Source of the DNA: Azolla caroliniana
Taxonomy: Eukaryota; Plantae; Polypodiophyta
Length of the DNA stretch: 64,000 nucleotides
Direction of reading: 5' to 3'
Assembly (NCBI GenBank): GCA_043228905.1
Contig: JBHGNT010000014.1
Span: 682,001-746,000, forward strand
The position numbers were made by a program, and so were the translations under genes. The notes under the pieces were generated by a model that worked only from the letters and a program-made list of their open reading frames with translations, was not told the origin of the DNA and made no database searches. This document shows, one piece after another, positions 3,961-17,869 of this stretch; positions within the stretch are counted from its first letter, which is position 1; each line of letters starts with the position of its first letter.

Positions 3961-4149
3961 ATCTTGGGTTTGACCTAGATGGTCCACAACAACAACATTC
4001 CTCAAAACTTCTATATCATGCCTTCCCAATCCAAGTTGGTCTATATAAAATTCTCAATTGAATTTTCAAAATTGCAATTAACTTTTGACCTTGTCCTTTT
4101 TAACTATTACCAATTCCTCTCATAATACTGGGACATTTGAAACAGGTAA

Positions 4150-7100
4150 TATGTCGCATTTCCCCCCCCAAGAAAACACTACTTCGCATTAGTTAGCAAA
4201 TAGAATACAACAAAGTTTACCCAAATCACAGTGGGATCAACATATACAACTCAGAGGAACAACTCCAAAACTATCAAACAAAAACAACAAAAACTCACAC
4301 AACCCTTAACTCCAACAAAACTGAAATAAACCCCATTTTACCTCGACTCTACACCTCCCAACTAACTCTTTTATAACAAAGTTATCCGGGTAACATGACT
4401 ATACTAACCCACTTGTGCTTCAACTATACATACATAATTACAACCATGTACAATATTGGGAGCCATTAGCGGAAACAGCCACCTAGGCGCCTGATAATTC
4501 CACTTAGGCCTCGACGAAGATTTGAACATCATGGGAGAACCACCCCATTTCAGCAAGAACTTTGACCTTGCCCTTTCTGCTTCATTTGATTCCCCCTGAA
4601 TCGAGTCATACCAATTGCGCAACCAAGCCACAAGCTCAAAACAGATATTTGACATCACCTCCCCGCATGAGAGCTTTTGCTATTGAAAAACAAACTTACA
4701 ACGCCTGATCCAGATGTGCCAGACCAATAAACACGCCACCATAAGCCAAATCTCCTCAAAAAATTCAGAATTTGTGGCAGGTCTCACCTCGTCACATTGG
4801 AACATGCTACCACCCTTCATTATAAATCCATATCCTTGTGGGTTTAACTTCCCCCCCCCAACTTTTCCCTTTTAGAGACAGTCCTTGTATGGAGCCCCAC
4901 ACACCGTTCCCATTCACACCACAGGCTACCACGATTCGAAGGCTTCTACTCCAAATGCTAATCGCCTCTGTACAATTCCAAAAACAGTGAGAGATTGATT
5001 CCAAAGCATGTCCACATAACTTATAGCCAGTCTCGCCACCATAAGAACTCAACCACTCCCATATAGATATCGCCTTGTGGCTAATAAGCCACAACCAAGC
5101 CTTTATTTATTCTGGTGTATCCAATGCCCGTAGTTTCCTCCAAAATGACTTTAGATCGTCATTTGATATGCCTTTATCCTTCAAACTTAGTATTGTGGAT
5201 CATTACAACAGCCACCGCTTTGGAGGCAATGATTCATCTTCCTAGCTTAGTATTGTACTTTAAAAACTTTTTTAAGTCGATTGTTCCTAGTGTTTGCCAC
5301 CATACCTCTAGTGAATCCCACTTCAAATCATATAAGTGCTTCTTGTTGAAAAGCCATATTTTACAATCCTAATCAAGTGTCTTAGGGTCTGGGTTCAATT
5401 GCCACCTCCTACCCTCCAACACTGCCACCCGCACTGCCAACCACCTACCATCATCTGTCAAAGAACTTAGGTTACCCCACAAACGCTCCTCATTAGTTGA
5501 GCACCTACAACAAATAAGTTTTGCATCACCCTCAACTACAAACCAACCTGACCAAACTGCCTCTTCTGCATTCAACTTTCCTAATCCATCAACAACCTTA
5601 TCTATTAGCTGGGTCACCTTCACTAGTCTTGTAGTAAACCTACAACTAATAGCCTGACCCTCCCGCCTCTTCATGCTGAAGAACTCCCAATTGTGTATTG
5701 ACCTATTCTTGTACCCTAGCATCCTCCCCCATGGCAAGTACTTTTTTTGTCCAAGCATCATACCATCTTCCCTTCTAATCCTAGGGTTCCAAAACAAAGG
5801 TTGTCGTAGCTGTTCATCCAATGTTTTCGGTTGCATTAACACCAACCTTCTCTGAAACTTGAGCATGCTTTCATTATGGCGCAAACCACCTTATCCTCTG
5901 TGCTAGCCGGTTCTTTCAACTTTAGAGCTGAACTGAACAACCACCTTGTATTTGCCTGCAAGGAACCACCATTCTTGGGACACCAAAGGTCAACTCTGTT
6001 CCTAAGGAGCACCTTCCACAATTCTAGTCTGGGTTGCAAACTTCACACTAGAAGCTTACCAAGTAGGACCTTACTTTTGTGAACCGGATCCACCAGCCCA
6101 AGTCCTGTCTGATTCTTCGCCTTAATTAAACAACCCCACACCAGTTTATTTGACGCCATCTCATTGTCTCTACCCGACCAAAGGAACACTCTCACCATTG
6201 CCTTAATATTTTTTATGCAGGCTTTGTCTAACATCCAACATGGCACCGAGTGTCACATGGTGGCCAACAAAATATGGTTCACCACAACCACCCTACCAGC
6301 AAGGGAAGGTTTTACTAATGCCCACAATTGAAGCTTTTTTCTAATTTTTTCTTTCACCTGCTCGAGTTGCTGATTTTTAGGTGTCTCAACTCCCACCAAA
6401 AAGCCCAAATACTTAACAACCATTCCATTGGGGATCCATTGAAAATCAACGTTAGGACATGAGAGCGATTGTGGGTTTGAACTTACCCAGAATCCTATAC
6501 TTTTGTTCCAATTAATTTCCCCCCCTGACGCTTTGCAAAACAACTCAATCCGTCCTTCAACCTTCTGTAAATTAGTGTCATTGCCTTGCAAGTAAAGCAT
6601 AGTGTCATTTGCATACTCATAGTTCAACAAATCCTTGCTCGCATGTGGAACAACTAAACCCCTTATTCCCGCATCCGATCTATTAAAAAAGAAAGAGAAT
6701 GCCTTTGTACTAAATAAAAAAAGGTAGGGGGCCATCGGGCGCCCCTGCCTAATAGACATGTGTAATAGAATCGATGGGCCACGATGCCCTGTCATTAACA
6801 CCTTACTCAAACTTCCTTTGTAAAGGGCCAGTGTAGCCAATCTCCATTTTAAAGGCAATCCCAACCCCTCCATGACTTTGTCTAAAGAAGGCCATTGAAC
6901 TCTATCATACACCTTCTCCTCAAAGTCTAGAATGAGACATGCAATGTGTCAGTTGGTTTTCTTTGCCAAGGAAATCGCCTCCCAAAATGTCAACACATTA
7001 TCAATTATGCATCTGTTTTCCATGAACCTTGTTTTTCCAATGTGGATTAGTTCATGTTGGTAGGGTTTTACCCTTTTGGCCAGTTTATTGGCAGATATCT

Positions 7101-8250
7101 TATATATTGTGTTGAACAACGTGATTGGTCTCCATTGCCTTGCATAAATTATTACACCTCGTACCTTAGGAATTAGAAATATCATCCCCTCTTGAAATTG
7201 CGCAGGTAAGCACCCAACATCCATGCCTCTTTTAGCCCATCAACCAAATTAGCCTTAATCACGTCCCAAAAATTTTCAAAAAAATCTCTTGATAATCCAT
7301 CGGAGCTTGGGCAAGACATTCTGCAAATACCCACCGAAGCATCATCCACCTCCTCTTCCAAGAGAGGCCTCGAAAGATTAGCTTGTGCGGCATCTAAAAT
7401 TCTGTGTTGCATTCCCTCTAGCACATATTCTATCGGAGCAGGCTGTTCGGGGATACTGTAGCTATCTGAAAGCAACTCATGATAGTGTGATTTGACCGCC
7501 TCCAAGATCTTCGAAACATCCTTTGACATAGAGCCATCTTCCTTAACCAACTTTGGATTGTAGCTACAATTTTTTCTAGGCTTTTTATGCATGAAAAATT
7601 GTTTATTCACCTTATCCCCATTTTTGCTCCACCATGCCGCCGAACTCCTGAATAACATCGTATTTTTGGATGCAATCAAGCATTGCAACATTTCTCTGGC
7701 CCTCAAGGCCTACCTTGGACCGTTGGCACTAGAGATCTTTCTATAACAGCCTTTGGGCAGCCGCTATTGATCTCCCTAAAAGCATTTTTTCCTCCTTGGA
7801 CCTCACAATTCTACTTTTAGTCGTTGTGTGGAGATACATTGAAGTTTCGATAATCTTCCCTCGAAGTTTATCAATTGCGCCAAACCCACCGAATTGCTTT
7901 CCCATATGCTCCTTATGTTCCTACTCACCTCCACATCCTCAGAAAGTTTTTTGTTGATCCTCATATTACAGTCCCTTGCTGGCCTCCTCTGCATTTCTAG
8001 TGTTATCTTAACTAACATATGATCGGAGTAGGTTGAACCTGCAATGATTTCAACATTGGTTCCAAATTTTTCTAGTTCCAAGCTGATGTATATTATGTTA
8101 ATGCGAGACATGCAAAAGCCATTCATACTGCAGGCATCTCTCAAAAAGCTTAGTGAACCTTGAGGTTTTTTTATTACATGCCAAGCATCTTTCACCCCCA
8201 TTCAACCCATCAACAAATCCCATGCAACTAGCTTAGTCCCCAACACCACC
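4150..8250 (-). mobile_element. Degenerate, 5'-truncated L1-like LINE (endonuclease end, RT, zf-RVT)
   Basis: Colinear fragments with many stops and frameshifts: SRINIIY...YSDH (endonuclease), WRPITLFNTIYKI, LDFEK.YDRV, SIRQG.P.APYLF, EYANDT, KYLG, ESISHCFWNC (zf-RVT). Boundaries are approximate. Confidence 0.9.
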
Positions 8251-9790
8251 ATGAAAGCATTGCATTGTGCAAAGTTTTTCGAGAACCTACTAAACATTTG
8301 ATCTATATGATCATGGGTATGAACAACTAGTCAGAAGTTGACCTTAATCTTCTTAAATAAGCCCTTCTCTACTATCATGCTTAAATAACCGAAAACAATC
8401 GAGTTTTTATTTTCTCTGGATGTATTGTCGAGTTGCATGTATAGAACATGTAGGAGTATATCTAGCCAAGACTGTAGCACTCTTTGCATGACTGTGATTG
8501 TAAGATTAGGGTCGTTGTGGATATTAGGATAAGTTAAGAATACTTGAGGCTTTATTGTCTGACAATATGATAAGCAACCTACTAAATTCATTTGTACAAG
8601 GCATTCATCTCTAATGTCCTTTGGCAACCTTTGAACGTGTGGCAAACAAGTCTTCTTCTAATCCATGCCATCAATAATCATACACATATACCTTTAGGGT
8701 GATTGAAGAGGTTTTTGTCGGTGGTGCATAGCTTTAGAACGTTCTAATGCTTAACTCTCACGATATTCTTTCAATAGAATCTTGTAATTCTTTATTTCAT
8801 CATCTAATTTCCCACCCTTTGCCATACTTTTTAAACTTGCACATATTGAACAAAAACAAACTCCAGGAGAGAGTGGACTACCCATTTGGACCTTACACAG
8901 TATAACCACATTGTTAGATCGTGACCTCCATAATCTATTGAAATGTCGATACTATATGTAAGGTACACCTTGTAATAACATCTCATCTTTATATTCTTGA
9001 TAAACTGCATAACGAGGGAAATTATCAAACAAGTGCAATCTTCTAGTAGTAGGCATAATATCACATTGCTTTGAGAAATATATCTCCATCCAATTAATAG
9101 AATGACGCCCTATAAGACCCTTATTACCAGAGGAATTCATATCAAAAGGTATCCATGATCCCTCTACTAATCTTAGTTGTATTCACTGAAGCCTCATGTT
9201 CCCAATGCTATGTGCAATTTTAAAAGCAACTCTACAACACTTAGTGCTCAATCCAAGGTAATATTCAACGTGCGTTGAACTAGCCCCAACGACGTGATCT
9301 CTTACAAGCTGCATATGTGAAATAAGAAAATTGTTCCTCACCATTAAGTGAAAGATACTTCTCCCACATTATCTGTAAGTTTGCCTTTCCAAATTTATTA
9401 AGACATAGATTCCCACAACATGTCTTGCTCGAATTGCAAACAATCTGATGATCAAAACATAAAAAGTTAAATCTCTTTACACTAATTTGTCAAGGAATTC
9501 TTTTAAATGTGAGAGGCTTTGTTATGCCAGCTTCGTCAGTTGTGGTTTCATCCTTGTCAATGCTTGCACAACGTTTTCTATGTTGTATACCACGTTCTCC
9601 CGGCCTCATGAAAGGGTAGATTGAGAAAAGTGAGTTTGAGTCATTACCAACATCAATATTAACATTTTCACCTAGAACCTTTGAAACACTTGGGACCTTG
9701 TACTTATAGATTGAGAAATATGAGTTACTCCATAAAGCATAAGGATCCACAAATAATAAGGATGATCTACGCGAAGCAGAAGACATCTTG
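8250..9790 (-). pseudogene. Degenerate Sola-like / DUF7869-type DDD DNA transposase
   Basis: Minus-strand motifs in order: CCGNLCLNKF, CCRVAFKIAHSIG, YMCMIIDGMD*KKTCLP (~8690-8640), LYMQLDNTSRENKN, F*LVVHTHDHIDQMFSRFS (~8335-8280). These supply the three catalytic Asp motifs. The family assignment is from motif recognition, not a search. Confidence 0.75.
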
Positions 9791-10324
9791 AAGCCTAACT
9801 TAAATTAACAATTTTGGCTATTTTAAACAGAAGCTTAGAAATTTAAGATGTAGTCTTTGAAAATAAACCATATGAAGACATCTTGGGATAGAAGCTAAGG
9901 CATCATATTATTATTAAATTTTATAAATTTCTTATAATAATCATCTGTTTAATAATGTATTTTTTCTAGGAGAATTTTTTTATAAATAATTATTTTATTT
10001 TCCCAAAACAAAAAACAATTTAAGTTTAGTATATAAAAGAGAGGACCCCCCTCATTGTCTCTTACACATTTCACTACATCCAAGAGCTCAGAGCACTTTC
10101 GAGAAAAAATTGTCGTTTTTGCTTTTGTCAACACATCATCAACAACCAGTCAACATGAAATTGGGCAAGAAAGTTGTCAAGTAAGTCTTCTTCCACCCAA
10201 TTTTTCTTCCACCCAATTTTAAAGCTTCCAAAAGATACCATAAATATTCTTTTTTATTTTCTGTAAAATTAAGTGACTTTAATTACAACCATTTTGGTGT
10301 TTGATCAAATTCTTGTGTATGTGT

Positions 10325-11052
10325 CCTCTAGAATCTAATGTAGTGGTCAAATTCTAGAGCCCTATGCTCTTGATTTCTTGTTTAATCCGATGTAGTGCAT
10401 AGGATTAGATAGGAAATCATAGAGCTTCTGATGCACTACATCAGATTAGAGAGGAAGTCCTCCCTAATCCGATCTAGTGCATCGGATTAGGGAGGAAATC
10501 ATAGCACTTCCTCCCTAATCCAATGTAGTGCAACGGATTAGAGAGGACTTCCTCTGAAATCCAAAGCACTGCATCGGATTTGGGAGGACATCATAGACTT
10601 CCTCCCTAATCTGATGCAATGCATTGGAATAGAGAGGAAATCATAGGAATTCTTCCCTAATCCAATGCAGTGCATCGGATTTCAGAGGAAGTCCTCTCTA
10701 ATATGATGCAGTGCATCGGATTAGGGAGGAAGTCCTCCTAATCCGATGCATTGCATCGGAATAGAGAGGAAATCATAAGACTTCCTTCATAATTCGATGT
10801 GGTGCATCAAGTTTCAAAGGAAGTTCTCTCTAATCCGTTGCACTACATCATATTCGGGAGGAAATCATAGAACTTCCTCTAAAATTCGATGTGCTGCATT
10901 GGATTTCAGAGGATGTTCTCTCTAATCTGATGCACTACATTGGATCAGGGAGGAAATCATAGAACTTCCTCCCTAATTCGATGCAGTGTATTGGATTTTA
11001 GAGGATTTTCTCTCTCATCCGATGCACTACATCGGATTAGGGATGAAATCAT
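10325..11052. repeat. Array of ~15 palindromic 37-bp units
   Basis: Consensus CCTCCCTAATCCGATGCANTGCATCGGATTAGGGAGG. Clear units start at 10459, 10510, 10551, 10601, 10652, 10693, 10734, 10784, 10825, 10876, 10917, 10968 and 11009, with partial or degenerate units at 10325-10455. Linkers are either 4 nt (AAGT) or 13-14 nt (AAATCATAGAACTT). Confidence 0.95.
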
Positions 11053-11210
11053 CAGGATATTACACTTATTTTAGGTGTATGTTTTGTGGTTTGGGTCATA
11101 TATTTAGGTGTATTAAACGTTGTCATAGTGTATTTCGTACACTACATGAAAAACGTATAAAGTACCCGATTTAATAAATATGAAGAAAACGAAGAAAATA
11201 TGAGAATACA

Positions 11211-11833
11211 TGTTACATGGATAGGGCAAAATTCGAACCTTGTACCTCCATGTTAATAATATAAAGCCTTACCATTACACTAACATATCATTAGTATCAA
11301 AAAGTAGATGTCCCACATAGAAATTTAAGTTCACGCTAGGATAAACTTTAGGAAAACGCACGATAAAAGAAAAAGCTACACATGCACATCTAGCGTGCAT
11401 GAACACTATAGTCGATAAAAAACGCATGACTTTAGAAAAAGCATGTTAGAGAAAGCATATAGTCTATTGATAGAAAAAGCATGGAGGGCATAATTAGAGA
11501 AAAAAGCATGGATTGTTAAGACTCTCTCATCACTATATAAGGATGGGGAGCACAATGTAATAGGTGTGTGAAAATTTTGGAAATTGGATATATGTGGGAT
11601 TCACGAGGTTTCTATATCTCTCTCTTTCAGTTCAAATTCATATTCTTATCTTAATATTGATTAATCTAATAAAATATATTATACTCGTGAGATTCATGAG
11701 GTTTTTATATCTCTTTCTTATAATCTATTCATATTCATAACTAGATTAGCCTCAAATTCTTCCTCCTCCTAGTCCAAAACCCCAACGGTTCCCACCCGAC
11801 TCAGGCAATGATCTGGCACAGAAAGGCATGACA
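11211..11833 (+). repeat. Candidate solo LTR (chromovirus-LTR-like)
   Basis: Starts TGTTAC, has a CTATATAAGG TATA-like box (~11534) and a possible end at ...CATGACA. The first 80 bp resemble the U3 end of the LTR at 59194-59617. No matching TSD found. Confidence 0.4.
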
Positions 11834-11945
11834 ACGTTTAATTTCACCTAAAAATCTGCGTTTCCACCAAAAATCTGCTTTTCCACAAAAAATTGTGCTT
11901 TTTCTCAAAAAAAATTGCTTTTCAGTGAGCCCCATTAGAAGGTGC

Positions 11946-12533
11946 TATTAGGAATAGTACTAGAGGCAGAGAGAATTAGTACTAGAGAGGTAGAGAAGAG
12001 AGAAAAGATTGTGTGAGGATCACAAGAGAGAGAAAGAAAGAAAGAAAGAAATATTATATGAGGATCACAAGAGAGAGAAAGAATGAATGAATGATATATT
12101 ATATGAGGATCATAAGAGAGAGAGAGAGAAAAAGAAAGAAAGATATATTAACGTCTTCTAAGGCCAAAATTGGCCCATGAGACAAATGGTTTACAACAAA
12201 AAATGGGATATTTACCTATTCATCAAAAGTATGATAACAAGAAGTATATTATATGAATAAGAGTACAAGGATAGTTATGAGGCTTAAGAATGGCGTTGAA
12301 CCGAATTGGTTCTAAATAATGTCATGTGCCTCTATTTATAGTGTTATCATGAGTATTCCTGAAGTTTCTAGAATGTTCCAAAGTAATCTAGAATATACAT
12401 GAATTTTTTATAATGAAATTATAAATGGAAATAATATCTCTTGTATTACAATGCATAGCTTTCAGGAATAGTACTAGAGGCATAGAGAATTAGTACTAGA
12501 GAGGTAGAAAAGAGAGAAAAGGTTGTGTGAGGA

Positions 12534-12592
<59 letters not shown>

Positions 12593-12875
12593 GATAACAA
12601 GAAGTATATTACATGAATAAGAGTACAAGGATAGCTACGAGGCTTAAGAGTGGCGTTGAATCAAATTGGTTCTAAATAATGTCACGTGCCTCTATTTATA
12701 GTGTCATCATGAGTATTCCTGAAGTTTCTAGAATGTTCCAGACTAATCTAGAATATACATGAATTTTCTAGAATGAAATAACAAATGAAAACAATATCTT
12801 TTGTATTATAATACATAACTTAATTGTATGGCTTCAATCTGTGTAACATAAGGTCATGGGTTCAAATCCATTTGA
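11946..12875 (-). repeat. Tandemly duplicated chromovirus-type LTR
   Basis: Two similar copies start AGGAATAGTACTAGAGGCA (~11950 and ~12464) and share CCTCTATTTATAG and the TTCTAGAATGTTCC block. Related to the LTR at 59194-59617 and directly adjacent to a chromodomain relic. Confidence 0.75.
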
Positions 12876-12876
12876 T

Positions 12877-13165
12877 TGAGGACCTGGTTTGATTGGATAT
12901 TGGCGATGAAAATCCTCAAGCGCTTGAGCATTGGCCACATTCTCTATTGGTTCCAAAGTACGATCGCTTGGACTATATCTTGGCCAATCTACCAAATAGT
13001 AGAGCTTGTTGCAAACAATCTTGGAATCGAGGATGGCAACAAATTCATATTCAGGTCCATCTTCAAGTTCGATCGGGGGTGGAGGTGGTGTAATACGATT
13101 AGGAATGGAGCTTTCCTAACGTGGTTCTAAGAGAGAACTATGAAATACCATATGTATCCATAATT
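12877..13165 (-). pseudogene. Chromovirus integrase chromodomain relic
   Basis: The minus strand reads PPPIELEDGPEYEFVAILDSKIVCNKLYYLVDWPRYSPSDRTLEPIENVANAQALEDFHRQYP, matching the chromodomain at 59647-59900. Confidence 0.85.
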
Positions 13166-13559
13166 GCGAACGTAGATCAAGGCGAAAAGTGACATCATTA
13201 TTTTTTCCATTAATACAAAAAGGGCCTAACCTTTGATAATCCAGTTTGGCACATGGTCAAGTAGTCCTTACATGTCATTGTAATAGCCATACTCAATCTC
13301 CAATATCAAAATAGGATAGAAGCCGTTGACGATCTGCATAGTCCTTCTATGTTTGTTGGGCTTGATGTAGGTGGTTAGATAGTTCTACCTGAATCTTGCG
13401 TAGTTGCTCCAAATGATCCTATGCACTAGGATTTGTGGGTAATACAAGAATTTCGAATACACACCAATAAGGATAATAGCCTATATAAGCATAGAATAGT
13501 GTAACCCTAATAGAAGAGTGGATAAAATTATTATAAGTAAATTCAGCAAAGTGGAGGAG

Positions 13560-15820
13560 ATTGTCATCCCAGAATTTGAGAAGGATGGTATAGTTCAAGG
13601 ATGGAAAACATTGTGAATCCTAAATGTTAGTGGAAGTGCTAACCAGAACGTGATTGGGTTGATTCACTCGACGATACGGAAGGGGGCTAACTTTTTGTAG
13701 TCTAGCTTCGCGCAAGAACGGGTGGTGGTGATGTGGCAGTGTAGCAACCAAACCATGTTACCGACTACAAAAGGTCGACGCGGCCAAGCAATGATGGTTA
13801 GCGTGATCCCTATACTGTTTGCCAACAACACGGAGCTCAAGGGAGAGGTCACAATGGACATCTTGTAAAGTGCGAGCACGCATCTCTACCGACGGATTGA
13901 TAGAAATTGTAGGAATGGAAATGTTGAAATGAGGGTGGAACCCATAGTTTGCAAATAATGGGGAAACCTTAGTGGAGGCATGGATACTATTATTGTAGGA
14001 AAATTCCACCATGGCAAGGCAGTCCAACCAATCCTCTTGTTGGTAGCTTACTGTACACCAAAAGTATTGTTTGAGGATTTGGTTGACTCTTTCGGTTTGA
14101 CCATCATTTTGAGGGTGGTATGTTGTTGACAAGTTCATTGAAGTCCTGAATGTTTGCAAAAGTTGTTGCCAGAAGTGGGAGATAAATTTAGGACCTCAAT
14201 GAGAGGTGACATCCTCGGGTAAGCCATGTAGATGAACGACATTTTTCAGAAAAAGATATGCCACCTCCTCCCCCAAAATGGTTTTTGAGCATGGGACAAA
14301 ATGAGCCATCTTCGAAACTGATCGATGATCACTAGCACCATGTCATGGCCACCGACGTGAAGGAGGTTGATTATAAAGTCCATTGAGAGAGAGACCCAAG
14401 GTCGACTAGGAAGCAAAAGCGGGTGGAGAAGGCCGTAGGGACGATGGTGAGCCGCTTTGGAGCAGGAACAAATGTCACACATCTTGATAAATTCTTTGAC
14501 AAATTTCCAAGGTTGGGGCCACCAAAAGCCCCGAGATAGCAACTCCAGTGTTTTCACGACCCCAAAGTGGCCAACAAGAGGATCATCATGGCAATTTTGT
14601 AGGACTCGAGTGCGACATTCTCCAAGTGGTACATAAAGGAGGTGATTACAATAGAGTTGCCCATCCCGAGTTGTAAAGTGACTGAGATCCGAGCTTTGCA
14701 TTCCCTGGGATGGGTTGTTGATGCACGCCAGGATGTCGGTAGTGAATGGGTCTGACATGGTGGCCTGGTTGATTTCGTTGAGCAAGGATATCATGCAACA
14801 TGTAGGTTGCGAACATATGGAGTTGATTAGGCCGCAATAAACAATGTGATTGCTAAGAATATGCATCGTCACCTGGGCGTAGCACAAAATCTGGTCACGG
14901 AGAGAGGGCATCCGCTTTTCCATGTTGAACGTCGGGTCGAAACAAGATTTCAAAGTCGTAGTCAGCGAGAAAAGATGACCAATGAGCCTGCCTCTGATTC
15001 AATGTATGACTGGTGGTGAAGTAAATGAGATTGTTTTGGTCGATCAATATCTGGATACGATGTTGGGCCCTAGCAAGATAGGGTCGTCATTCGGTGAAGG
15101 CAGAGATGATAGTTGCAACCTCCTTGTCTAGACGGGATAATTGATTTTCGGGGTTGTAAACTTCCGAGAGTAGAAGGAAACTGGATGTAGTGTACCATCG
15201 TCATCTGGCTGGGACAGAACTACGCCAATGGTGAAGTTAGAGGCATCCGTTTCAACTTGGAAGGGTCTCTTTGGGGTCGGGGTGAACCAATATAGGGGCT
15301 GAGAGAAAAGCTACTTTGAGGGTCTCAAAAGCATTGTGTGTCGCAGGGGTCCAAGGAAATGGAGTATCTTTTCGAGTAAGTTGGATAAGAGGTTGCACGA
15401 GGGAAGAAAACCTGTCTATAAATCTTCTATAGAAATTTACAAAACCAAGAAATGATTGTACCTCTTTCAGTCAAGTCGAACTAGGCCAATCGGTGATTGC
15501 CGCTACCTTGCTCTTATCCATTGTGATCCCGTGGTTGAGATCATGTAACCCAAGAATTCGACAGAGGTTCGAACGATTTCGCATTTCTCACTTTTGGCGT
15601 AAAGCCCATATTCCCGAAGTTTGGTTAGAACTAGTCGGACATGTTGTGTGTGCTCCTCTAAGTTGGAAGAAAAAACTAGGATGTCATCAAGGTAGATTAC
15701 CACGAAGTGATCAAGGTACTCTCGAAATATATCGTTCATCATGTGTTGGAAGACTGTTGGGGCATTGGTAAGGCCGAAAGGCATCACCTTGTACTGAAAT
15801 AAGGCATATTCCAACATCTC
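13560..15820 (-). mobile_element. Degenerate Tcn1-like Ty3/gypsy pol (RT-RH-IN)
   Basis: [65 protein letters not shown], with several frameshifts. Confidence 0.92.
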
Positions 15821-17869
15821 CCCAAGGTGTGAAAAGGAGAATGTGACATATTACATGTTTTAAATGTCCTAGTGTTTTATATATATCACACACTTTTGCC
15901 TTTTATATCTTTATGTCATTTATTTCTCATCATAAGACACTGTTGATTAGAACGTGTTATTTTTATGTGCATAAGATGTATTGGTGCAATATATCTCATG
16001 CATTAGTTCTTACACTTATAGTAACGCCTAGTGCCTAGTTTGTGAAAATATGCAAGTTTGAAAGATAATACATAACTTAGCTTAAAATTTCAATTGCTTA
16101 ATGCTTACATAATTTTCAACAATATTGGTTTGTGTATCCTCATTCCCTAACTTTTCTTGCATAGGATAATACTTTTGTGTTAGGCATGTTTTGGATGTTC
16201 AACAATAGTGTATCAAGGATGATGAGTAGTTTAATGAAAGATGGACTTAGTTCTTGTAAGTTTAGAATTTGACTTAATCATCTAATTGATAGTGTCATGA
16301 ATATACAAAATATCCTCCTCAATTACTTCAACCCGCGACCTCCTCAATGTTTACATTTGATGTCAATAATTTCCCTGATGTGTTGGAGTAGATCTTATAC
16401 CAATCTTCAACATAACTTTGTAGCTCTTCTTTTTATCTATAATAAAAGTGATTTTCCTTATTCTCTTTTCTCAATTGAGTATTATTTTTTGCTTTAATCC
16501 TTGACCATTCAAATCATAATTCCTGTATTACGCTTCTTTTTTCGGAGAACACTGCCAAACTTTTCTCCTAGGTATGGAGTTTGTCAATAAGCAAGAATAC
16601 ATGTTTATCTCATTAAAGCTTGATTGCATCACCACCAAGTTTGCGACACTAGAGTAAATTAGAGTAAATGCTTTATCGTCCACGAGGAGGCCAATGTTGA
16701 ACCATGGAACCAAATCAACATATCATCTTGTATGTGACTCCTTAAGAAGAATGGTTACTACTATGTTTGTAAAAACTCTCTAAGTGAAAATAAAGCACTC
16801 ACATCTAAGTGAAAATAAAGCACTCACATCTGTGTCCATTCAGCATGTGATAAGTAAGTAATATTCATCCATTGCTAGGTTGTCATTTCATACCTTGCAT
16901 ATCTTCATATTTGAGTGATGACACCATGATGTTACCTCAACACCTAACTTGTGCGAATGAGTTCAAAGAAGTGTTAAGGTTCTCCAAGGGCCAAGGTTCA
17001 TGGGGGTAGTGAGATGCAATTGGATACATTCTGGCATTTTTACCTTGTATTGGGGCCAACATTAGGGATTAATGTTTGCAACGTAACATTCCAATTCTAA
17101 TATTTCGCATCTTGTCATTGGTGCCTCGACTAATTTATCCTCAATTATTACATACTTCATAGTATCACCTGAAAGCTCCAATTGATATTTTGCTCCCCAT
17201 CTCTTAAAACATTTCATAATGTCAAGCACCCAACCAAATGATAGGATTTTGCTCTTATTAGTTTGTTGTACCTTGCATCCTTGTTCCAAGCTTGTTTTGA
17301 TAGTCTATCATTAGGCATATTCTTGACTTTTCTTATATACTTGTATATTCTTTGCATGGATGATACCTCTATGGGTTGAGCATTGTTTCTAATAGCATGG
17401 TAGAATATGATGTTGAGGATTTTACCTCCAATTTTCTACTTAGAACAATTTCTTAGCTTTCTCTATTTCATTCCATGCACTAAGTGAGATAGTGTCACCC
17501 CACACTCCACTCTATAAAGCAACACTTGAACCACCATAACATTGAATAACATCAATCTCTCTCACCATCCTCGAGTATCACTTTGGTTGCATTAATTCTC
17601 AAACATATCATAACTATTCCAACTCACCACAATAAGTGATGAGAAGGCATAACAATATGTGGAGCTAACTCAACGGTCCACCAATTGGAAGCTCTTCTAT
17701 TAACTTTGTGACAACATGTATCAAGAGGACAAAAGTCTCCCAAAGAACCAATGATCATTCTTCAAATGAAGTTTGATCGGATGAGATCTTAGTTTTGATT
17801 ATTCATGAACCAAGCGCATTTGGTGTGTTTTTATCTAAAAACTTCAATTAATCTTCGAAGATACACATA

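Follow-up and report, generated by a model that had tools for sequence, protein, structure and literature searches.

The window, that is, the whole stretch of 64,000 nucleotides of Azolla caroliniana DNA analysed here, contains a dead copy of a DNA transposon at positions 4124-15876, with an array of palindromic units at its centre. The parts recognized in and around this copy, in window coordinates, are as follows.

4120-4123, plus strand: flank TCAT, sharing 3 of 4 bases with TTAT at 15877-15880
4124-4161, no strand assigned: right terminal inverted repeat (TIR), 36 of 38 bases agreeing with the intact element end
4165-8250 (approximate limits), minus strand: LINE-like remnant nested in the element, with reverse transcriptase at 6253-6948
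8252-9786, minus strand: pseudogene of a Sola-like DUF7869 transposase, covering residues 13 to about 515 of 917
10030-10039, plus strand: TATA-like box in an AT-rich stretch between the head-to-head starts at 9786 (minus) and 10155 (plus)
10155-10186, plus strand: predicted coding mini-exon 1 of the ParB-methylase gene, 26 nt, MKLGKKVV plus 2 nt
10325-10345, no strand assigned: degenerate relic half-unit preceding the array
10377-11045, no strand assigned: palindromic array of 15 decayed units, in predicted intron 1 of the ParB-methylase gene
12834-15850 (approximate limits), minus strand: Ty3-like retrotransposon remnant with reverse transcriptase, integrase zinc finger and chromodomain
15794-15876, minus strand: left end of the copy including the decayed TIR, 83 bp, 87% to the intact element

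The TCAT and TTAT flanks are likely a decayed target-site duplication (TSD). The transposase pseudogene, which carries seven stops and one frameshift and has the LINE remnant in place of its 3′ part, matches Pfam DUF7869 at 75.4 bits (cut-off 26), and its ATG at 9786 on the minus strand lies 540-590 bp from the array, in agreement with the distance of about 550 bp to a degenerate transposase given in an earlier note on this DNA. The Ty3-like remnant occupies the expected place of the exons of the second gene, which is deleted in the window copy beyond the mini-exon and its phase-2 GTAAGT donor at 10181. The AT-rich sequence that separates the two divergent start codons is, from its position, a predicted promoter region shared by both genes. 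Two other repeats were seen nearby: a 180-bp repeat at 11115-11295, unrelated to the element body, which also adjoins several other loci at 85-90% identity, and, at 11944-12821 where the Ty3 remnant has its 3′ end, duplicated blocks (106 bp and 233 bp, ~91%) together with 45-bp repeats rich in GA, which are possibly LTR pieces.

The description of the array as about 15 units agrees with our count of 15 units at 10377-11045, each matching the 37-mer consensus at 24-34 of 36 positions, and the two classes of linker, measured at 3-4 nt and at 13-14 nt, were likewise recovered, as was the 92-bp dimer (41 + 51) beginning at 10784, 10876 and 10968. The units had also been called perfect palindromes, which is true of the consensus alone, as the units in the window pair at only 10-16 of 18 positions. 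The 37-bp unit is present in the window array but is specific to the subfamily, the unit common to the arrays being a 23-bp palindrome with a 15-bp core. In the window this 23-bp core reads AATCCGATGCA-N-TGCATCGGATT and recurs with periods mostly of 41 or 51 bp. C>T or G>A changes account for 28 of the 44 mismatches to it, indicating that the window array is decaying, and the asymmetric core variants that had been noted in both orientations are likely products of methyl-C decay that were copied via duplications. A scan for CGATRC-N3-GYATCG with up to two mismatches gave 12 matches in the window, 11 of them inside the array, where 4.3 were expected window-wide; the array is thus more than chance.

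A search of genome G000 with the array yielded 37 candidate places that were scored, and the 36 besides the window were compared. Coding remnants of transposase, ParB or methylase lie within 5 kb of the array at 35 of these 36 loci, and transposase and ParB remnants are both present at 29, so that the proposed link between array and transposase holds and the arrays are not found independently of the transposase family. Alignment of the array loci defined elements of subfamilies A and B of 7.7-9.0 kb, of the cut-and-paste type, with 37-bp TIRs and a TSD of 4 bp in 16 of 19 complete A/B copies and 5 bp in the other 3. An exact 33-bp TIR pattern matched 299 times in G000 and not at all for a control. 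At one locus, L058 on G000:C7, the duplication is 5 bp and the insertion site at the left end finishes with AACACCGG, bases identical to the first ones of the TIR. The array does not have the subterminal position suggested before but is internal, in L034 about 4.4 kb from the left TIR and about 3.5 kb from the right. A subterminal or TIR-derived array was rejected, as the array is central and the TIRs are without the core; the best match of a TIR to a half-site, 7 of 11, is at chance level by rough estimate.

In intact copies, a DUF7869 transposase gene stands head-to-head with a spliced gene for a protein with a predicted ParB fold and an N6/N4 methyltransferase. Several copies have intact 923-codon transposase frames, 98-100% identical, with a DUF7869 match of 169 bits and the conserved acidic motifs DGMD, QLDN and THDH, although the structure model of this protein is poor (pLDDT 42.7). 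For the element, the nearest homolog with a name came from a fern (72%). First-look searches yielded 1205 transposase candidates and 1305 candidates of the second gene, figures that are not to be read as copy numbers. DNA transposons of the Sola superfamily have TIRs and make a 4-bp target-site duplication, as the present elements mostly do, and the transposase is provisionally called Sola-like, after the earlier note. Its C-terminal domain (residues ~730-860 in L034:6066-8816) is beta-rich (PFWIAKI...VHWY) and is reminiscent of chromatin readers of the BAH/Tudor type; an Atlas search with this part returned unnamed eukaryotic clusters only and no named family. A further family, D, has elements of ~9.2 kb with a 927-codon transposase frame, a TIR of ~36 bp and a TSD of 4 bp in three of three copies. 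The TIRs of families A and D are unlike except at their ends, while the core is common to both. Family D (L187, L191, L192 and many further matches), whose arrays are very regular at 51 bp, seems to be both larger and younger than the family of the window copy. At L188:4472-6206, a large self-inverted gene-less structure carries D-type cores and two TIR-like pieces close together. Bacterial REP/BIME arrays consist of palindromic units with few linker types beside an HUH (RAYT) nuclease and are not known to have TIRs or TSDs. The likeness to them drawn in the earlier note proved superficial: the present array accompanies a DDD/E-type transposase in an element with TIRs and TSDs, and it travels inside this element and is not dispersed alone.

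The second gene is multi-exon, with ~970 codons in our model, on the strand opposite the transposase. Contigs of run X2, presumed to be RNA, reach its downstream exons and not its 5′ exons, and skip three of four predicted downstream introns exactly, at GT-AG ends. The gene matches Pfam N6_N4_Mtase (PF01555) at 34.8 bits (cut-off 26.7), and the order of its methylase motifs by exons, DIPY, then PYQKP, then DLFSGTG, is that of the beta class (motif IV before X and I, FxGxG). Between subfamilies A and B its dN/dS is 0.044, a value indicative of purifying selection. Motif IV is DIPY (in 64 of 73 aligned rows) and not DPPY, which is present in the distant homologs P0118 and P0181; the annotated fern and Ginkgo homologs have EAPY, DAPY or DIPH. 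A D at this motif suggests an N6-adenine target, which is probably that of the present methylase. Homologs of the ParB-methylase were found in Ginkgo, Adiantum, Ceratopteris, Riccia, Chara and Clastostelium, and the one from Ginkgo matches CcrM, MboIIA and RsrI. The annotated Chara braunii protein P0044 (1825 aa) contains two tandem ParB-methylase units and may be a fused gene model.

The domain upstream of the methylase is predicted to have a ParB/Noc-like fold. The middle part of the protein, modelled at pLDDT 79.7, matches ParB/Noc in Foldseek (E 9e-6), and when the Foldseek matches were re-scored with VIA, the N-terminal fold gave Z 10.3 against ParB/Noc (rmsd 2.1 over 99 aligned residues), and the helical part a weak match to the DNA-binding domain of ParB (Z 5.3, rmsd 4.4, 91 aligned, 4umk). 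Bacterial ParB has an arginine-rich CTP-binding motif; at that place the present proteins have IGGSHS (68 of 81 rows) and no arginine, so a CTP clamp is uncertain and clamp-like spreading doubtful. Identity between families amounts to 72-75% in the helical region that follows the ParB fold, 52-57% in the N-terminal part of the transposase and 70-73% in the transposase core. As a lead only, the closest Atlas clusters to the ParB-like region of L034 (2410-3357, minus) were fungal DUF3723 (0.96); DUF3723 proteins are common as Starship cargo. A K-rich mini-exon with a phase-2 donor lies between array and transposase in subfamilies A, B and C, where it is clear in 10 of the 12 loci (window included), and in L034 it is in frame with the acceptor of exon 2; of 12 distant loci, 7 have a less convincing candidate. 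This position of the mini-exon places the array in the predicted first intron of the ParB-methylase gene.

The subfamilies have only the 23-bp core in common, their spacers being different. Across the cores of eight families, positions 1, 5-8 and 10 and their mirrors are kept, positions 2, 3, 4 and 9 vary symmetrically, and the three central bases are free. When the cores were masked, just 7 of 36 family pairs retained a match, of 23-92 bp, and the intergenic regions are nearly unalignable; synonymous sites between families are mostly saturated (dS). These comparisons indicate that the core CGATRC-N3-GYATCG is kept across saturated divergence while spacers and TIRs turn over, which also disfavours the earlier suggestion of a transposon-derived satellite seed. 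Exact TCGATRC-N3-GYATCGA sites number 3509 in G000, against 2 for a control. Nine array sites were sampled from this genome-wide scan; eight lie beside a ParB-methylase gene and the ninth beside pieces of family-D TIRs, and in six element loci the motif is confined to the intergenic cluster. For a set chosen independently of the array, 40 of 150 ParB-protein matches were taken, of which 22 have the core at 18/22 or better and 18 lack it at that threshold; the core-less loci, among those listed, are truncated, interrupted or with a symmetric variant core, and one (L074) has both genes and both TIRs and no core. Ten loci picked from the 150 best transposase-profile matches included nine with the motif and one that is truncated, and no transposase family without the ParB gene was found among these ten. 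Of 164 metagenome contigs 80 were kept, and eight of nine distant head-to-head loci on them have arrays in the same slot, the ninth being without an intergenic region; the distant transposases are 52-60% identical where long enough to measure. Between element copies the number of units in the array ranges from 0 to 22.

In 26 hand-picked loci, every one of the 90 periods shorter than 70 bp belongs to one of four classes, 31-33, 40-43, 49-54 and 63 bp, which are near 3, 4, 5 and 6 helical turns; a few off-phase periods (29, 38, 65-69 and 35 bp) occur at rearranged junctions. The modal periods of 11 families gave R = 0.945 at 10.4 bp, which was reached by none of 200,000 random draws, a test that is optimistic and overstates independence because the families share ancestry.

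A 3.9-kb family of eight loci (L196-L201, L204 and L206; for example G000:C2:24692295-24696332) has lost nearly all of both genes and retained 5-8 cores. It has been amplified, most loci being 96-98% alike and L197 ~90%, and many of its cores are 137-161 bp apart, roughly nucleosome length, with AT-rich spacers. Its ends are an A-type TIR on one side and a B-type TIR on the other.

The mutation spectra of the copies provide an indirect germ-line record of 5mC. In A and B copies, CG/CHG sites decay at ~8 times the rate of CHH sites. Core CGs decayed at 85 of 800 sites against 160 of 4195 in A, 26 of 388 against 419 of 10,979 in B and 16 of 704 against 122 of 4032 in D, core counts that are inflated in all three by inherited variant cores. 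No protection of core CGs from 5mC decay was seen in these spectra. The strong CG/CHG decay, together with core CGs that are not spared, counts against a simple shield from host methylation.

Taken together, the invariant half-sites, the free centre, the whole-turn spacing and the retention of cores by gene-less copies suggest that a protein binds the duplex DNA in cis. We consider it probable, with some reserve, that the array is a phased cluster of palindromes serving as parS-like docking sites for the element's own ParB-methylase, which would then methylate the element. A dimer would read two CGATRC half-sites, and whole-turn spacing would set neighbouring dimers on one helix face, allowing cooperative loading. 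The bound methylase would mark its copy, probably with N6-methyladenine (6mA), near the predicted head-to-head promoter, gene-less copies would be marked in trans, and the mark or the bound protein would favour expression or mobilisation. Self-methylation, putative and probably 6mA, is suggested by the fusion of ParB and methylase. The wider proposition, that seed-free land plants harbour an active transposon-borne parS-ParB-methylase whose dimers load on phased palindromes, spread and write 6mA on every array copy including the gene-less ones, and that this private mark at thousands of sites promotes spread, we regard as doubtful on the present data.

The binder could instead be the transposase, with the cores as internal sites for a transposition enhancer or for transcriptional auto-regulation and the ParB-methylase doing something else. 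The gene-less family retains its cores, as would be expected for a cis site of any kind on which movement depends; the transposase core is itself well conserved between families, at 70-73% identity; and transposases are reported, in the part of that source available, to regulate transcription in a sequence-specific manner (10.64898/2026.08.24.746577). Since both genes are present in all families examined, the two proteins are not separable as binder in this way. We nevertheless judge transposase sites unlikely and the ParB-methylase the better candidate, because the ParB fold family binds palindromes, because its helical region is more conserved than the faster diverging N-terminal part of the transposase, because the core, absent from the TIRs, is constant across families in which the TIRs have diverged, and because arrays of inverted repeats are found next to a ParB gene in elements with an unrelated (EnSpm) transposase, as described in the accessible portion of a preprint (bioRxiv 10.1101/2025.02.11.637652). 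A host DNA-binding protein reading the cores, with the cluster used by the element as an enhancer or for nucleosome positioning, would hold the motif constant as well, and the distance of the cores to the predicted first donor is 100-300 bp, with the roughly nucleosome-length spacing of the gene-less family also fitting. This explanation appears very improbable, given that the element has its own conserved ParB-fold protein of a fold that binds palindromes, and given the confinement of the motif to the intergenic cluster in six element loci and the sampled array sites, eight of nine beside a ParB-methylase gene and the ninth beside family-D TIR pieces.

The earlier note considered hairpins or cruciforms, and intronic RNA hairpins (as a small-RNA source or for splicing control) or DNA cruciforms are possible in that the folding energy of the array transcript is -394 kcal/mol, compared with -192 for shuffled sequences, the arm changes are compensatory, the three free central bases suit a minimal loop, and the array lies in a predicted intron. 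Palindromes fold strongly automatically, however, and structure alone needs neither invariant CGAT half-sites nor whole-turn periods, both of which this explanation leaves unaccounted for; gene-less copies still have cores, and an Rfam search with the array gave no match, which counts against it too, so that we find it improbable. A palindromic minisatellite that has no function and is maintained by gene conversion and template switching would fit the copy number of 0 to 22, the inversion and duplication of units and the free mutation of cores in inserted copies, but it is largely refuted, and in our judgment the least credible of these explanations, by a core that is kept while spacers, TIRs and synonymous sites turn over and by four discrete period classes.

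Docking by the element's own ParB-methylase, the reading that we prefer, has a close precedent in the brown alga Ectocarpus, in which the Sola transposon Sola1-1_Ec32 carries on the opposite strand a gene with a ParB-like domain and an N4/N6 DNA methyltransferase, and its authors propose that the accessory protein binds and modifies the sequence of its own element (PMC12477816). Both elements pair a ParB-methyltransferase fusion with a transposase on the opposite strand, a likeness in domain content. The Ectocarpus element is 21.5 kb with a protein of 1104 aa, two intact copies being listed for Sola-1, and the term 'palindrom' is absent from the main text of that paper (PMC12477816). In contrast, the present element is from a land plant and is 7.7-9.2 kb with many young copies; its core is defined, its arrays are helically phased, and a gene-less family has kept the cores. 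In Bostrychia, the Plavaka (EnSpm) elements with PAG2/PAG3 have tandem inverted-repeat arrays beside an accessory ParB-domain gene, proposed as binding sites for self-modification, and the available text of this preprint gives no motif or phasing for them (bioRxiv 10.1101/2025.02.11.637652). Those elements differ in having an EnSpm transposase, a ParB domain fused to a 2OG oxygenase and an adenine methylase in a separate, SET-fused gene.

The tested functional analogue is the VANDAL/VANC anti-silencing system, in which an accessory protein binds motifs in fast-changing tandem repeats in introns and upstream regions (PMC5735166, as far as that source was available). VANDAL elements are Mutator-like and have a 9-bp, non-palindromic, fast-changing motif, and VANC, a DUF1985/DUF287 protein, removes 5mC (PMC5735166), whereas here a palindromic motif with helical phasing has been conserved for long, the protein is predicted to write methyl marks, and the mutation spectra reveal no protection from 5mC; a Pfam scan of the element gave no DUF1985/DUF287 match. 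As predicted from the models, the protein resembles bacterial ParB/parS and Noc/NBS in having a ParB-fold N-terminal domain, followed by a helical part with a weak match to that of ParB, and in the clustering of palindromic sites, but it differs from ParB/parS in its methyltransferase fusion, its GGSH, its residence in a eukaryotic transposon and the lack of a ParA partner in the element. Retrotransposons carrying DAM show a prokaryote-type adenine methylase on a eukaryotic transposable element, linked to 6mA on its copies (bioRxiv 10.64898/2026.05.21.726589); they are of the DAM class and retrotransposons, unlike the present TIR element, and 'ParB', 'Sola' and 'land plant' are absent from the available text of this preprint. 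The present element is not described in the accessible parts of PMC4738411, PMC8885841, PMC5751038 or bioRxiv 2021.02.12.428880. No land-plant element, core motif or phasing of this kind was found in the literature, although supplements, subscription papers, Repbase, Iyer 2011 (ref. 50 in PMC12477816) and the Current Biology version of the Bostrychia work may hold such. Within the sources seen, self-modification by a ParB accessory protein in algal transposons is known as a proposal only, and the land-plant case, the core motif and the phasing are new.

The family supplies material for testing the proposal: it has young intact copies and a spliced gene under purifying selection, its site is exactly defined as CGATRC-N3-GYATCG and varies symmetrically in nature, the sites are spaced by a rule, and thousands of them in the genome could be examined for modification with long reads. 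Family D is the best material for experiments. Loss of 6mA from multicellular lineages has been reported in the group concerned (bioRxiv 10.64898/2026.05.21.726589, in the part available). If docking and methylation by the ParB-methylase are true, a land-plant transposon would write a DNA mark other than 5mC on itself, and its protein would be a compact, site-guided methyl writer.
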